A stretch of 64,000 nt of DNA from Candidatus Aenigmatarchaeota archaeon (GCA_043802485.1 JAZDKZ010000006.1:199497-263496), one strand, 5' to 3'; counted from the first letter of the stretch, positions 2,632 to 36,063 are shown. Notes: generated by a model from the sequence alone, not told the origin. Numbers and translations: made by a program.

Positions 2632-4497
2632 ATGAGAGGACTGTCCGCCCTTATTATAGCGATTATCTTTGCGGTTGTCTGGGTATTGCTAGTGATACTT
2701 TTTTTAAGACATGTCAATACTTTCGTAGAACCTGCCGGAAATTCTGAGAAAGGGTCAGAACAGAGGATAATACCAAATGACGGCTTTGACTACACCACTT
2801 ACCTTCTAAGTGAGGATCCTGTCGACTTGGCTACTTACGACGAATGCGACAAGCTCAAGAACGCAATAAAGTACGCGATTATCAACGAAAGGCCTTATCT
2901 TGTGGACACAATAGCATACGGCAGCAACCTTGTAGACAAGGTGGACTTTCCGTTCATAGGTAACTGCCTAGACGAGGACCTTGTATTCGAGATAGGTGAG
3001 GGTCTTGAACAAGTCGTGTGCAGATTCAGGACTGCCACGCAGAATGAAAAAGTCGGCTTAGAATTCGGGGGCATATCGGACGCATCGATGCTCTATTTTG
3101 ACAACTGTGTATACGCTTTCGACAACCACAACATACTTCCCTCATTATCGTCAAAGAATATAATGGGACCTGCTGTCGAGGAAACGAGCACAGACGCCAG
3201 CACGGTAAAGGTCATCTACTCGCCTGACCACATGTACATAGAAAACGGGGACTATTCGCATTACCCTTTTGTACCAACCAACTCACCTGTTGCAGGCCTT
3301 AATCGCTTGTATTTGATGAACAGTAGCGCCTTTGACATGGCTTACAACGGCGGTGGCTGGCTGAACATCTACGTGGGCAAGGCCGAGTCAGTCAACGGCG
3401 AATGTAGGTATAATGTGTATTTCTGCCCAAGGCCTGCCATAGCTAGTGACATGCAGAGCAGGACGCTTGACGTCTTCAACATATTCAGAAAGCTTGAGAT
3501 ATATCCTGTATACTTCCCCTATTACATAAGAGACCTTTCGGACGATGCCCTTGACATGTCCGGTTATTCTAATGAAGTTTACCATTGGAACTACTATGAT
3601 GTCGATTTAGGCGATGAGGGGTATGATGTCGAGACTATAGTAAACGCCATAAAGGCTGGCCTTTATTTCAACGTTCACTCCAAGGGTTACGAGTTCGCCC
3701 ATCCACACTGGGACATAGAAAAGGATGACAGTATATCAATTTACGAGCTGGCTAACAAGATAGCATTGCACATAGGCGTTAAAACAGGTTCAGGGGAAAT
3801 ATGCGCCCAAAAGGTGTATTTAGGCCTTCCGTACGGAGACAAGTACTGCACCACAACATCACTACTGCTTTTTGTGGACAGGGACGACCCTATCAAATCT
3901 TACAGGTTTACCAGCAATCCCCTTGGTGATAGCTTCACCCGTTTCGAGGGGAGCTTCGGTACAATACCATCTTCTGTTTACACCAGAAACATCAACACGA
4001 ACAGTTATTTGAACGCTGTATTCGGGGCAGACGATGGTATGATTGCAATAGATATAGGAGTCAAAGAGGGCATGGGGGAGATATGCGTTGACGACCAGTG
4101 CACAGACACCTCGATGATAGTAAAGATAAACCCTGGTACAGAAGTAACCATAAGTGCAAAAGAAGACCCTGGTTACGAGTTCGCCTTTTTCGAAGGCTCT
4201 AGCACAACTTATGATTTAGATACGTTTGATAGGACGATAAACTACGGTGATTTTTTGAACGTCATATTTGTTCCTAATGACGGCGAGATAGGCGATTGCT
4301 GGTACCAGTCCTACAACGAAATGCTGAACGATGCTTCAGAATGGAAACGGACACGCTCGATAAGGTTCAACTGTGGCGGTGACAATGTGTGTAGTGGCAC
4401 CCTGAGGATAAAAATGGCAATAAGGAAGGACACGGATGTTGATGGCGAGGACAAGAAAACATACGTCTCAAGTGTGGTTTCATTCTGCGATACTTAA
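2632..4497 (+). CDS. Secreted Cys-containing protein, family member 2, with two tandem beta-repeat (InlB-B-repeat-like) modules
   Basis: The N-terminus is MRGLSALIIAIIFAVVWVLLVILFL. Family motifs are CRYNVYFCPRPAIA, GDCW and GTLRIKMAIRK...VVSFCDT. An internal repeat reads IGVKTGSGEIC... / IGVKEGMGEIC...EDPGYEFAFFEG. Confidence 0.7.
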   Translation: MRGLSALIIAIIFAVVWVLLVILFLRHVNTFVEPAGNSEKGSEQRIIPNDGFDYTTYLLSEDPVDLATYDECDKLKNAIKYAIINERPYLVDTIAYGSNLVDKVDFPFIGNCLDEDLVFEIGEGLEQVVCRFRTATQNEKVGLEFGGISDASMLYFDNCVYAFDNHNILPSLSSKNIMGPAVEETSTDASTVKVIYSPDHMYIENGDYSHYPFVPTNSPVAGLNRLYLMNSSAFDMAYNGGGWLNIYVGKAESVNGECRYNVYFCPRPAIASDMQSRTLDVFNIFRKLEIYPVYFPYYIRDLSDDALDMSGYSNEVYHWNYYDVDLGDEGYDVETIVNAIKAGLYFNVHSKGYEFAHPHWDIEKDDSISIYELANKIALHIGVKTGSGEICAQKVYLGLPYGDKYCTTTSLLLFVDRDDPIKSYRFTSNPLGDSFTRFEGSFGTIPSSVYTRNINTNSYLNAVFGADDGMIAIDIGVKEGMGEICVDDQCTDTSMIVKINPGTEVTISAKEDPGYEFAFFEGSSTTYDLDTFDRTINYGDFLNVIFVPNDGEIGDCWYQSYNEMLNDASEWKRTRSIRFNCGGDNVCSGTLRIKMAIRKDTDVDGEDKKTYVSSVVSFCDT

Positions 4498-18944: not shown

Positions 18945-19367
18945 GTGAAAGGTATCGAATTACCAATAAACATTTTAGTGATAGTTGCAGTGGCTGTTAT
19001 CGTTTTACTAGGTCTGGTTGCTTTGTACTTTAGCGGCTTCATGGGCCCAGCAGGCGTCATGAATGCGCAGGCAACGAAACAGAAATATTGCGCATCCATA
19101 ATGAACAATCCAATGGGTTGCCAAGGCGGTGTGTATACAAGCAGTATACAGATAAACGATTTTGATGCAGACAAAGACGGGGTCTTAGGAACTTCGGACG
19201 GCGGCACAAGTTGGCATGAAACCGATGCTGTATGGGACAGCCAGTTACCGGTTGATGTTTGCACAGCAGACGACAACGTTCAAGACAACCTGGCATCATT
19301 GCTGGCTTGCTACTTTGGAGCAACATCCGAAAGAAACGCCCTGCAAATATGTGGCTGCACGATATAG
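18945..19367 (+). CDS. Small pilin paralog D
   Basis: The GTG start sits after AGGTGAAAAACA. N-terminus MKGIELPINILVIVAVAVIVLLGL, with FDADKDGVLG and the tail LLACYFG...QICGC. Confidence 0.7.
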   Translation: MKGIELPINILVIVAVAVIVLLGLVALYFSGFMGPAGVMNAQATKQKYCASIMNNPMGCQGGVYTSSIQINDFDADKDGVLGTSDGGTSWHETDAVWDSQLPVDVCTADDNVQDNLASLLACYFGATSERNALQICGCTI

Positions 19368-19507: not shown

Positions 19508-19804
19508 ATGGCAGAAAACACAAAAAAAGAAGCAGAGAGCAACGTGGTCTTTGTCGGCAAAAAGCCGGCAATGAGCTATGTTCTTGCATGCGTAACACAG
19601 TTCAACGAGGGAAATACTGAGATAATGCTGAGAGCAAGAGGAAGGGCAATATCTCACGCAGTGGACGTAGCAGAGATAGTGAAAAACAAGTTTGTGACAG
19701 ATACAGAGATCAAGAACGTCAAGATAGACACAGAGGAAGTCGAAACAGATAGCGGTGAGAAGCTGAACGTTTCCTCGATAGAGATTACGCTTGGCAAAAA
19801 GTGA
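19508..19804 (+). CDS. albA: Alba (Sso10b-type) DNA/RNA-binding protein
   Basis: The 98-aa sequence [21 protein letters not shown]...[24 protein letters not shown] is typical of Alba. There is a strong SD (GAGGTGAAAAAATG). Confidence 0.85.
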
Positions 19805-19889: not shown

Positions 19890-20246
19890 ATGAAGGGTAT
19901 TTCACTTCCGATAAATGTTCTGGTAATTGTCATTGTAGCAGTGATAGTTCTTTTGGGCGTGATGGCCCTGTTCATGGGAACTTGGTCTCCTTTCGGGACC
20001 TCAATGAGTGCGGAAGCTGCGAAATCAGCAGGATGCAGAAAAGTGATAAACAATTGTTATAAATCGGAGGAAGATCTTGATACTTATACCAAAACTATTT
20101 TGATATTCAATGGTCAAGATGGTCTGCCTAATTTTGACGTTGATGGTATTGATTATGTTGGTACTGGGGTGAATGGAGACAACATGTATAATTTATGTGT
20201 TAAATTTTATGGCGCAAAATGCAGAGATCTGTGCGGTTGCCAGTGA
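19890..20246 (+). CDS. Small pilin paralog E
   Basis: MKGISLPINVLVIVIVAVIVLLGV, nearly identical in N-terminus to the ORF at 18945. It has FDVDGIDYVGTG and the tail NLCVKFYGAKCRDLCGC. Confidence 0.7.
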   Translation: MKGISLPINVLVIVIVAVIVLLGVMALFMGTWSPFGTSMSAEAAKSAGCRKVINNCYKSEEDLDTYTKTILIFNGQDGLPNFDVDGIDYVGTGVNGDNMYNLCVKFYGAKCRDLCGCQ

Positions 20247-20297
20247 TTGCTTTTTCTAATATATATTTAAATTGAGTTATCTATAACAATTGAATAA

Positions 20298-20825
20298 GGG
20301 CTGGTAGATCAGCGGTAGATCGCTTGCTTTGCAAGAAACTTAAATAGAACCCTGCATATCTATATGATATGCCGTTTAAAGACACAAGGGTTCTAAAGAA
20401 ATACAAGCACGAATGGTACCTAAGAAAAAAGAAAGGCCTTCCGACAAGAACAAAACCAATTTTGTCCGATGCAGACAAAGCAAAAAGAAGGCTTGAAACC
20501 AAAAGGAGAACAAACGAGAAAGTTAGGGCAAGAAAAAGTAGCATTTTGAAAGAAAGGCTTGGTGACAAGTGTTACTTTTGCCTTTATGAAAAGAGGTTAA
20601 CTTGCCATAGGAAAGATGGAAAGGCTCACAAACAATTTTGTAGCATGAGTTTAGGTGCATTCAAAAATGAGCTTGACAAGAACGCTGACAAGTATGTCAG
20701 AGTTTGCTTCAAATGCCACAAAGCAATCCATTGGTGTATGGATAAGCTCAAGCTAGATTGGCGTGAAATAGAAAGAAGGTTTCCAAAGTAGCAAGAGGCC
20801 ATGGGTTCGAATCCCATCCAGTCCA
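20298..20825 (+). tRNA. tRNA-Ala(UGC) interrupted by a 456-nt intron (20334..20789) at canonical position 37/38
   Basis: The 5' exon is GGGCTGGTAGATCAGCGGTAGATCGCTTGCTTTGCA. The 3' exon is AGCAAGAGGCCATGGGTTCGAATCCCATCCAGTCCA. It has a G3:U70 pair and anticodon TGC at 20330-20332. A full helix-bulge-helix-bulge-helix motif surrounds both junctions (see finding). Confidence 0.9.
20369..20791 (+). CDS. HNH-type nuclease-like protein encoded inside the tRNA-Ala intron
   Basis: CYFC...LTCHRKDGKAH...VCFKCHKAIHW matches the CxxC...HxKDG...CxxCHxxIH layout of phage-type HNH endonucleases. The N-terminus is basic. The TAG stop (20789-20791) straddles the intron/3'-exon junction. Confidence 0.6.
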   Translation: MPFKDTRVLKKYKHEWYLRKKKGLPTRTKPILSDADKAKRRLETKRRTNEKVRARKSSILKERLGDKCYFCLYEKRLTCHRKDGKAHKQFCSMSLGAFKNELDKNADKYVRVCFKCHKAIHWCMDKLKLDWREIERRFPK

Positions 20826-20827
20826 CT

Positions 20828-21358
20828 CTAATATCTAGAACGAGGTTCTTTTACAAGACCTATTTTTTCTGCCTTTTTAAGCAACTCTTGTTTTTTATTG
20901 TATTCTTGTCTTGTCTTGTCTTGGTTCTGCTTTTCCATTTCCTTTGCTTTTCCAACAGAAATTCTATAGCCTTCTATCACCTTTTCAGAATTTTCTATCA
21001 AATACTTCATTTCGTTTTCCCATTCTCTGCTTGATGAAAGCATCTCTACTTTTGGCAGGTCTCCTTTTATTTGATACCAAAGCCTAAGAACAGGTAATAC
21101 GCCTTTTTTAATGCTTATTGAATTTCCCCCCATCATAGAATGGCCAGTTGAGTGTACTATATTAAATCCATAGAAATTCTTTATTTCCCTGTCAATTTCC
21201 GTGTTCCAAGCATGTTGTTCATATTTTATCCTTTCTCCTGCATCACTTACTTTGTCTACAAAATCAACAATGTTCCTATAGAATTTTTCCCTCTCATTAA
21301 CAGTCTGTTCTAAACCGCCTAAAGACATTTCTTCCAGTTCCTTTTTTGAAACTGTCAT
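20828..21358 (-). CDS. Hypothetical protein (176 aa)
   Basis: This is a clean ORF convergent with tRNA-Ala. I recognised no motif. Confidence 0.5.
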   Translation of the reverse strand: MTVSKKELEEMSLGGLEQTVNEREKFYRNIVDFVDKVSDAGERIKYEQHAWNTEIDREIKNFYGFNIVHSTGHSMMGGNSISIKKGVLPVLRLWYQIKGDLPKVEMLSSSREWENEMKYLIENSEKVIEGYRISVGKAKEMEKQNQDKTRQEYNKKQELLKKAEKIGLVKEPRSRY

Positions 21359-21429
21359 AATAATTTATTATATGGAAAAGGATTTAAGTCTGAAAAATCG
21401 GTTTTAGAAATTTACCCTTAATAACAGGT

Positions 21430-21627
21430 TCAGTACATTCTGCGAAAGCCTGTCTTGGCCTTTCTTTCAATGCTTGTATTTGTATTTGGGTCTGCCAGTG
21501 TAGCCAAACCGTAACCATCGACATTCTCTTCAGGTATAGAATGGTCAACCCTTTTTGGAATATAGGGGCTTCCGGAAATATCTACAATACTCGAAACAAA
21601 TATCTTTTTAATTTTTACTTCTTTCAT
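21430..21627 (-). CDS. Hypothetical small protein (65 aa)
   Basis: The ORF lies immediately downstream of the 16S with its own AT-rich upstream region (CTTTATATTTG). I recognised no motif. Confidence 0.35.
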   Translation of the reverse strand: MKEVKIKKIFVSSIVDISGSPYIPKRVDHSIPEENVDGYGLATLADPNTNTSIERKAKTGFRRMY

Positions 21628-21690
21628 AAAATCACGTATTAACTATTAATCAGTAACAAATATAAAGCTTACGCTAGGTTTGAAAAAATT

Positions 21691-21722
21691 GCTGATGCAG
21701 CATGACTAGCTCTAAAAATATT
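21691..21722 (-). other. 3' half of the 16S processing stem
   Basis: GCTGATGCAGCATGACTAGCTCTAAAAATATT is largely complementary to 23236..23273 (GCTGATG/CATCAGC, CTCTAAA/TTTAGAG, AATATT/AATATT) with internal bulges. Confidence 0.6.
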
Positions 21723-21723
21723 A

Positions 21724-23204
<1,481 letters not shown>

Positions 23205-25980: not shown

Positions 25981-26107
25981 TGCGAGGGGCCGGATTTGAA
26001 CCGACGAAGGGACTAACCCACAAGGTTTCCCATGTGCTTCTGAGCATCGCATCCTAAGCTTCGCATCCTAAGATCTTGCGCCTTAGACCAGACTTGGCTA
26101 CCCTCGC
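25981..26107 (-). tRNA. tRNA-Leu(UAG), class II, with two predicted introns (26060..26074 at 30/31; 26027..26052 at 37/38)
   Basis: It has acceptor GCGAGGG/CCCTCGC-A, D arm GCCAAGTCTGGTCTAAGGC, T arm GTCGG-TTCAAAT-CCGGC and a long variable arm. Removing the two BHB-bounded segments gives the anticodon arm CAAGG-CTTAGGA-CCTTG. Confidence 0.75.
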
Positions 26108-35848: not shown

Positions 35849-35860
35849 GAAATCACGGAG

Positions 35861-35933
35861 CGGCTGGGACAAGACTCGAACTTGCAACCTCCTGATTAAC
35901 AGTCAGGCATTCTACCTATTGAACTACCCAGCC
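35861..35933 (-). tRNA. tRNA-Asn(GUU), copy 1
   Basis: The reverse complement is GGCTGGG-TA-GTTCAATAGGTAGAAT-G-CCTGA-CTGTTAA-TCAGG-AGGTT-GCAAG-TTCGAGT-CTTGT-CCCAGCC-G. Confidence 0.85.
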
Positions 35934-35991
35934 ATTTATGTTCACTACTAGAGTGTTTGTCGTAAACCCTAATTATTGTTAAGGTTTCGAG

Positions 35992-36063
35992 CGCCCATGG
36001 TAGGGATCGAACCTACGACCTTCTGCTTAACAGGCAGCTGCTCTACCGCTGAGCTACATGGGC
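35992..36063 (-). tRNA. tRNA-Asn(GUU), copy 2 (divergent body)
   Basis: The reverse complement is GCCCATG-TA-GCTCAGCGGTAGAGC-A-GCTGC-CTGTTAA-GCAGA-AGGTC-GTAGG-TTCGATC-CCTAC-CATGGGC-G. Confidence 0.85.

Follow-up and report, generated by a model that had tools for sequence, protein, structure and literature searches.

A tRNA-Ala(UGC) gene of a Candidatus Aenigmatarchaeota archaeon interrupted by a putatively mobile bulge-helix-bulge intron that encodes an HNH-like protein

How does an archaeal tRNA gene come to hold a protein-coding gene within its anticodon loop, and can such a gene still yield a tRNA? This question is raised by a locus on a metagenome-assembled genome of Candidatus Aenigmatarchaeota (GCA_043802485.1 JAZDKZ010000006.1:199497-263496; 64,000 nucleotides (nt), hereafter the window), in which a tRNA-Ala(UGC) gene with its intron spans positions 20298-20825, and the 456-nt intron consists almost entirely of an open reading frame (ORF). 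We consider it probable that the locus is a working tRNA-Ala(UGC) gene, split at position 37/38 by a mobile bulge-helix-bulge (BHB) intron that carries its own HNH homing-endonuclease gene. An earlier note on this DNA had interpreted the locus as a BHB tRNA intron with an HNH-type ORF, and that interpretation is supported by the anatomy of the locus, by covariation of the splice motif and by the existence of an empty allele, each of which is taken up below.

The two exons lie at 20298-20333 (+; tRNA positions 1-37, with the anticodon TGC at 20330-20332) and at 20790-20825 (+; positions 38-73, with CCA not encoded). Joined, they amount to 72 nt, which ARAGORN calls as a 73-base tRNA-Ala(tgc) with a cloverleaf fold, the UGC anticodon, the G3:U70 pair and A73. 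The coordinates, the tRNA identity and the G3:U70 pair given in the earlier note are thus borne out. When run in intron mode on the unspliced gene, ARAGORN returned a tRNA-Cys(gca) with a 454-nt intron, in which the intron is shifted by one base; this call was rejected as a placement artifact, since Ala(UGC) is the identity indicated alike by G3:U70, by the register of the BHB and by the empty allele.

The strongest evidence on the splice product comes from related contigs that lack the intron, which were found through homologs of the neighboring Alba gene (19508-19804) and the contigs that carry them. Ten contigs (L025-L034), whose Alba is 86% identical to that of the window, share the gene order Alba, pilin-like gene, tRNA-Ala and convergent 16S rRNA, and in eight of these ten the tRNA-Ala(tgc) is an intron-less gene of 72 nt. 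Four of them (L025, L029, L032 and L034) were compared base by base, and each is identical to the joined exons of the window at 72 of 72 positions; a tRNA of this sequence scores 73.8 bits with the Rfam tRNA model. The 16S rRNA of L025 is 94.4% identical to that of the window and the syntenic flanks are 82-88% identical, with the BLAST alignment stopping at the intron ends. Because the empty allele equals the joined exons, the splice product is fixed, and orthologous sites are seen to differ in whether they hold the intron. An intron-less allele of the orthologous tRNA-Ala had been named beforehand as the signature that homing would leave, and it was found. The remaining two contigs, L031 and L033, have no intron at 37/38 but carry, in tRNA-Ala genes at 2814-2905 (L031) and from 2447 to the end (L033), a 20-nt intron in the T-loop that is absent from sister contigs such as L025, so small non-canonical introns are also polymorphic in this tRNA-Ala.

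The intron itself occupies 20334-20789 (+), the two points at which the alignment to L025 breaks, and its junctions form a BHB motif. The 5' strand (20328-20339, +) consists of TTTG (20328-20331), the bulge CAA (20332-20334, with the predicted cut after 20333) and GAAAC (20335-20339), and the 3' strand (20779-20790, +) of GTTTC (20779-20783), CAAA (20784-20787) and the bulge GTA (20788-20790, with the predicted cut after 20789). The anticodon stem, CTTGC (20323-20327) paired with GCAAG (20791-20795), is continuous with the central helix TTTG/CAAA, the geometry is 3-4-3 (hBHBh'), and all 14 of 14 pairs are formed, so that the helices, bulges and outer helix hold exactly where they had been placed earlier. 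The accompanying claim of splicing precisely at 37/38 stands with a small correction: the junction falls at 37/38 and the product equals the empty allele, but an A|A at either end leaves 1 nt of ambiguity as to the site, with no effect on the product.

The same motif recurs at other loci that carry homologs of the intron ORF. A scan for a 5-4-3-5 motif at each locus, in which the spliced product was required to be a tRNA, placed the junction one base 3' of the anticodon in the best solution at every locus scanned. The tRNA-Ala(UGC) BHB was solved in this way at the window, L001, L007, L009 and L011; L002 has a perfect BHB too, but its additional introns prevent a tRNA call. In addition, BHB introns with family ORFs at 37/38 were found in a tRNA-Ile(GAU) of L010 and a tRNA-Val(UAC) of L017. 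When the two BHB strands of the eight fully resolved loci were aligned, 95.5% of cells were paired, versus 37-52% in controls in which the partner strand was slid by 1-3 columns, and the observed value was reached by none of 500 shuffles. Thirteen of the 14 pairs change on both sides across these loci, in compensatory fashion, and the helices specific to the intron are paired in 100% (central) and 87.5% (outer) of cells.

These data also bear on the suggestion that the locus does not work at all, whether as a tRNA pseudogene with an inserted ORF, as a self-splicing group I intron or through chimeric assembly. In its favor, the unspliced gene is missed by default ARAGORN and by the Rfam scan of the window, and the BHB is absent from the minimum free energy (MFE) structure given by RNAfold. 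Yet at least four assemblies, independent of one another, show this architecture, the exons match an allele that looks functional at 100% identity, and the BHB not only covaries but also persists at loci with a decayed ORF. Independent assemblies, the identical empty allele and covariation led us to reject a chimera or a pseudogene. A self-splicing group I or group II intron was likewise rejected, as neither Intron_gpI nor Intron_gpII of Rfam was matched over the window at the gathering threshold, nor at E<=10 over 20200-20900, the intron matches no other Rfam family either, and there is no space for a ribozyme core because 92% of the intron is coding. The idea of a non-working locus is therefore largely refuted, and we regard it as most improbable.

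What, then, does the intron encode? The ORF (20369-20791, +) specifies 140 amino acids, predicted to be an HNH-like zinc-finger nuclease, and is 100% identical to the NCBI entry 'hypothetical protein V1818_03820'. It fills 92% of the intron, and its TAG stop (20789-20791) spans the 3' splice site, which confirms the earlier description. Its last codons overlap the 3' strand of the BHB, with the stop on the splice site, and this is the pattern of intact copies (the window, L001, L002, L007 and L009). With its 3' strand built from the final codons of the ORF, the splice motif is physically interlocked with the gene. In the precursor, and in an mRNA that reads through, the stop is intact (U|AG, divided by the splice site), and with AG (window and L002) or AA (L001) as its first bases, the intron would form a stop anew on circularization, a property that may be of biological relevance.

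The intron also offers a candidate route for expression of this ORF. A conserved element, TTAAATAGAACC (20340-20351, +), lies directly 3' of the outer helix, and its TATA-like box is 29 nt 5' of the ATG; the element is kept 5' of family ORFs, both those borne by introns and those that are free-standing. TATA-like hexamers 5' of long ORFs in the window peak at -30 to -26 (14 of 45), and because the box at -29 is at the modal position in this genome, an internal promoter is plausible, as is leaderless transcription from within the intron. The tRNA gene itself is preceded by a TATA-like box, TTTAAAT (20266-20272, +), about 29 nt 5' of tRNA position 1, which would be its promoter element; the ATATTTAAATTGA element stands 5' of the intron-less tRNA-Ala in L025 as it does at the tRNA-Ala of the window. 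Among intact intron copies the ratio of nonsynonymous to synonymous substitution rates (dN/dS) is about 0.08-0.2, a value that is only indicative because dS is saturated, and which points to purifying selection on the ORF.

An element with its own promoter might also be a free-standing selfish nuclease cassette that had lodged in an older, non-coding tRNA intron, with another target and movement independent of the intron. Consistent with this, the module of promoter-like element and ORF is kept in the free-standing copies of L004, L024 and L016, and short ORF-less introns do occur in the same tRNA-Ala of relatives (the T-loop introns of L031 and L033). However, the 3' end of the ORF and the BHB are interlocked through the stop in the window, L001, L002, L007 and L009, and no short ORF-less intron at 37/38 was found in relatives besides clear decay products. 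We thus consider a passenger cassette quite improbable.

The assignment of the ORF to the HNH nucleases draws on PHROG matches of its family, on resemblance in predicted fold and on invariant residues. A family profile built from six homologs recovered 681 cluster representatives at E<=1e-3, 307 of which reach E<=1e-10; most members have about 140 amino acids, and longer ones carry arrays of helix-turn-helix DNA-binding domains. In a 79-member alignment, C68, C71, H80, H87, C113, H117 and H121 are invariant and C116 is nearly so. The window ORF has weak matches to HNH families in PHROGs (E 0.037-0.74), and in a scan of each member phrog_2255, 'HNH endonuclease', was matched by 41 of the 79, with a best E of 5.3e-12, alongside nine further HNH phrogs. 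Because its own best PHROG match is weak (E 0.037), the window ORF is assigned to the HNH nucleases by transitivity. The family also shares a conserved N-terminal extension, M-P-[FY]-K-[DN]...W-Y-x-R-K-K-x-G-L-P-T-R.

Structure prediction is consistent with this assignment. The AlphaFold2 model of the ORF has a predicted local distance difference test score (pLDDT) of 96.6 and shows two long N-terminal helices followed by a strand-strand-helix core, with strands at 77-81 and 109-113, a helix at 114-126 and a helix of about 28 residues inserted between the strands; H80 ends the first strand, and C116, H117 and H121 lie on the core helix. Against predicted viral structures (BFVD), HNH endonucleases make up nearly all of the Foldseek matches (best E 7.9e-4, with probability 1.0 and a template modeling (TM) score of about 0.5). 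Among solved structures, the weak matches are led by the HNH enzymes T5 SciA, Cap5, McrA, Gme and GVE2, and a search of the PDB with a model of the domain only did not improve significance; the structural link to solved HNH enzymes is therefore suggestive. From transitive similarity and the motif we conclude that the predicted protein belongs to a divergent branch of the HNH superfamily, for which metal-dependent nuclease activity would be expected.

If the intron is mobile, its site should be seen in different states in different lineages. It is intact in the window, L001, L002 and L007, decayed in L011 and L009, and empty in L025-L034. L001, from another Aenigmatarchaeote, has an intact ORF (64% identical) at the same tRNA-Ala(UGC) site. 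L002 and L003, from one Aenigmatarchaeote, have an intact ORF in a three-intron tRNA-Ala in the 16S-23S spacer (2887-3490, with a D-loop intron of about 39 nt, the 37/38 intron with the ORF, and a T-loop intron of about 34 nt), and L007, from a Woesearchaeote whose 16S rRNA is 72-77% identical, has an intact ORF (51% identical) in a tRNA-Ala that also lies in the 16S-23S spacer. L011, which is syntenic with the window (Alba 85% and 16S about 90% identical), holds a 310-nt intron at the same position, in which the ORF is N-terminally truncated and frameshifted; its BHB is paired at 14 of 14 positions, with an outer helix, CGTGT/ACACG, that is entirely different. In L009, the ORF is without its N-terminus and without an ATG. 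The distribution is thus patchy: the closest relative is empty, the middling L011 is wrecked and distant hosts are intact. All states of a homing cycle are present, together with signs of transfer, in that two phyla share the site and other tRNA species are occupied.

An intron that is spliced yet vertically inherited and immobile, with an HNH protein domesticated for tRNA or DNA metabolism or defense, or persisting as a relic, and with the empty allele arising by precise loss, would account for some of these data. The insertion site is common to three syntenic Aenigmatarchaeota loci, the purifying selection on the ORF would also be expected from a host function, and cleavage by the HNH protein is itself a prediction from sequence. 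On the other hand, the pattern is patchy, with the closest relative (16S 94.4% identical) empty while hosts at 72-77% have intact copies; the family is found in introns of three tRNA species as well as free beside tRNA genes, in arrays that bear mobile-element genes; and decayed copies exist, which disfavors an indispensable host function. Vertical descent alone therefore seems to us unlikely, although it is the strongest of the competing explanations.

The association of the family with tRNA genes extends beyond the BHB introns. In L004 and L024, family ORFs stand free between tRNA-Thr and tRNA-Gly within dense tRNA arrays on uncharacterized metagenomic contigs, and L016, an IMG/VR viral contig, carries a free-standing family ORF that is the sole viral relative in the IMG/VR scans; additional IMG/VR queries gave no further viral relative. 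In L018, L020, L021 and L022, tRNA halves flank family ORFs, and brute-force splicing gave no clean tRNA with a BHB; these loci may have extra introns or be degenerate, and they were left out of the evidence count. Neighbors in the arrays include an integrase (L017) and a prohead-protease-like gene (L018), by which a viral reservoir of the family is only suggested. A tight association with tRNA genes is as expected, because the targets of the nuclease would be tRNA genes. As an observation on the arrays themselves, L004, L010, L017, L018, L020, L021, L022 and L024 pack from 8 to at least 19 tRNAs into a few kb along with HNH-family members, and ARAGORN calls putative suppressor tRNAs in several of them (cta in L010, L020 and L022; tta in L017 and L021). 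These dense arrays may be viral or mobile elements, some of whose tRNAs have BHB introns.

Taken together, we propose the following cycle. The precursor would be transcribed from the tRNA promoter, and the anticodon stem would stack on the 4-bp and then the 5-bp helix, with the two 3-nt bulges between them. EndA, the archaeal splicing endonuclease, would cut each bulge after its second nucleotide, a ligase would join the exons into mature tRNA-Ala, and the intron would probably be circularized, as are other archaeal BHB introns. The 140-amino-acid protein could be made from a leaderless mRNA starting at the TATA-like box of the intron, or from the intron RNA, and would combine its N-terminal helical part with a C-terminal, zinc-bound beta-beta-alpha-metal domain. 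It would then cut intron-less tRNA-Ala genes close to the anticodon loop, and repair off the intron-bearing copy would install the intron. After fixation, the ORF would be free to decay while the splice motif would be kept by selection.

Several observations weigh against this proposal and must be set beside it. Excision by the splicing endonuclease and ligation of the exons are inferred. The RNAfold MFE of a shortened precursor is a slipped register, at -32.0 versus -26.9 kcal/mol for the BHB conformer; beside the covariation, thermodynamics alone is therefore uninformative here. The covariation segments were picked by the BHB scan, so the count leans towards structure; its register is independent of the scan because it is set by the anticodon. 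An intact second tRNA-Ala(UGC) may exist beyond the 64-kb window, and the empty allele could have arisen by precise intron loss instead of gain. As for the ORF, its own search against Pfam gave noise only, with no HNH model passed, searches of NCBIfam and of PDB sequence profiles gave no match, and the Pfam HNH model was touched by only one of the 79 family members (E 0.021). Foldseek searches of solved structures with the full and core models gave no match at E<=1e-3 and none better than E 0.4. As for the HNH-type pattern described in the earlier note, in the form CxxC...HRKDG...CxxCHxxxH it coincides exactly with the invariant columns of the family alignment, and roughly half of the family members match an HNH family of PHROGs; the window ORF itself is recognized by neither Pfam nor NCBIfam HNH models.

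The surroundings of the locus offer some further observations. In the window, about 900 nt (20826-21723) separate the tRNA-Ala gene from the end of the complete archaeal 16S rRNA gene (21724-23204, -), which is convergent with it, versus 65 nt in L025; this segment includes a 176-amino-acid ORF (20828-21358, -), to which no function is assigned, and constitutes a second indel beside the intron. The Alba gene is flanked by genes for paralogous small proteins (18945-19367 and 19890-20246, both +), whose products have an N-terminal hydrophobic segment like archaeal pilin or class III signal peptides, and it was by way of this block of Alba and its pilin-like flanks, whose synteny extends to L011 and L025, that the empty allele was located. 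The 64 kb of the window contain no 23S rRNA gene, and the rRNA genes therefore seem to be unlinked. In L002 (2060-2809) and L003 (424-1194 and 2054-2809), ORFs with faint matches to LAGLIDADG_3 occur within or just after the 16S gene and, together with the HNH-bearing tRNA-Ala intron, place two intron-type nuclease classes in one rRNA operon. Elsewhere in the window, a second intron-bearing tRNA (25981-26107, -), with class II features (a long variable arm) and an Rfam tRNA score of 37.3 bits, suggests tRNA splicing by the host; ARAGORN gives it as Lys(ctt) with a 43-nt intron, a doubtful call, and its insert holds a 12-nt direct repeat, CTTAGGATGCGA. Two tRNA-Asn(GTT) genes stand in tandem, 58 nt apart, at 35860-36063 (-).

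It is tempting to speculate that the locus represents a widespread and hitherto unrecognized class of mobile BHB introns, propagated by HNH proteins, whose homing targets are the anticodon loops of tRNA-Ala, tRNA-Ile, tRNA-Val and probably further tRNA species, and whose hosts are DPANN archaea together with the tRNA arrays on mobile elements or viruses of these archaea, although we put this broader view forward tentatively and would not yet call it the likelier outcome. Were it true, homing followed by decay of the ORF would be a concrete route by which archaeal tRNA genes gain introns, and many short non-coding tRNA introns could be the remains of decayed elements. The origin of protein-spliced tRNA introns, in archaea and by extension in eukaryotic nuclei, is an old open question: for the origin and spread of tRNA introns, one account invokes integrating elements but has no direct evidence to offer (PMC3293823), and little is said to be known of how introns are transmitted (PMC4496867). 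Intact, decayed and empty states at one syntenic locus, along with siblings in other tRNAs, thus provide a testable mechanism. There are practical consequences as well. Because default tRNA finders miss the tRNA-Ala here, such genomes may seem to be without an essential tRNA, while the intronic ORF ends up annotated as a 'hypothetical protein'; in addition, small nucleases that appear, from their genomic associations, to be specific for tRNA genes may be useful as reagents.

Elements that resemble parts of this system are known, and it is instructive to compare them. The phage HNH families (PHROG 2255, 3106, 8048, 4234 and others) match about half of the family in sequence and have a similar predicted fold and the CxxC...H...CxxCHxxxH pattern, but the family described here has the inserted helix of about 28 residues and the conserved N-terminal extension, and escapes the Pfam and NCBIfam models. 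Some group I introns of bacteria and phages carry HNH homing-endonuclease genes, for example I-HmuI. Self-splicing group I introns with nuclease genes interrupt various genes of bacteria and phages, tRNA genes among them (PMC3984707). They are alike in residing in a tRNA anticodon loop or another conserved gene, in carrying a nuclease gene and in following a cycle of invasion, fixation and decay; they differ in splicing themselves by a ribozyme, whereas here no ribozyme is detected and a protein enzyme of the host must splice. T4 SegB is a free-standing homing endonuclease of the GIY-YIG type, encoded in the tRNA gene cluster of a virus of bacteria (see also PMC2988022). The family copies of L004 and L024 likewise lie between tRNA genes, but they are HNH-like, the metagenomic contigs that carry them are uncharacterized, and other members of their family reside within BHB introns.

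Closer still are the introns of archaea themselves. With ordinary archaeal tRNA introns, the intron shares its position, its 3-4-3 hBHBh' geometry and presumably the EndA and ligase pathway (PMC4090602), but those introns are short and non-coding, as opposed to 456 nt and 92% coding here. A 2014 review of tRNA introns does not contain the words 'ORF', 'open reading frame' or 'homing' (PMC4090602), and no description of an ORF-bearing archaeal tRNA intron was found in the literature that we searched by full text, in which coverage of subscription journals was mostly lacking. The view expressed in the earlier note, that archaeal tRNA introns are short and non-coding and that ORF-bearing archaeal introns are mainly LAGLIDADG genes in rRNA, fits this literature. 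Archaeal rRNA BHB introns do encode LAGLIDADG homing endonucleases, as in the 23S rRNA of Desulfurococcus mobilis (I-DmoI) and the 16S rRNA of Thermoproteales (PMC4496867; PMC6125680), and they offer the nearest parallel: they too are excised by the splicing endonuclease at a BHB, have an ORF within the intron, are present at some sites and absent from others, leave decayed remnants and have been explained by homing (PMC4496867; PMC6125680). If our reading is correct, the archaeal BHB-intron homing endonucleases would be extended from LAGLIDADG proteins in rRNA to HNH proteins in tRNA. The differences are that the host gene here is a tRNA, interrupted at 37/38, instead of an rRNA; that the encoded protein is a small, predicted HNH-type zinc-finger protein instead of a LAGLIDADG enzyme; and that the 3' end of the ORF is built into the BHB itself.

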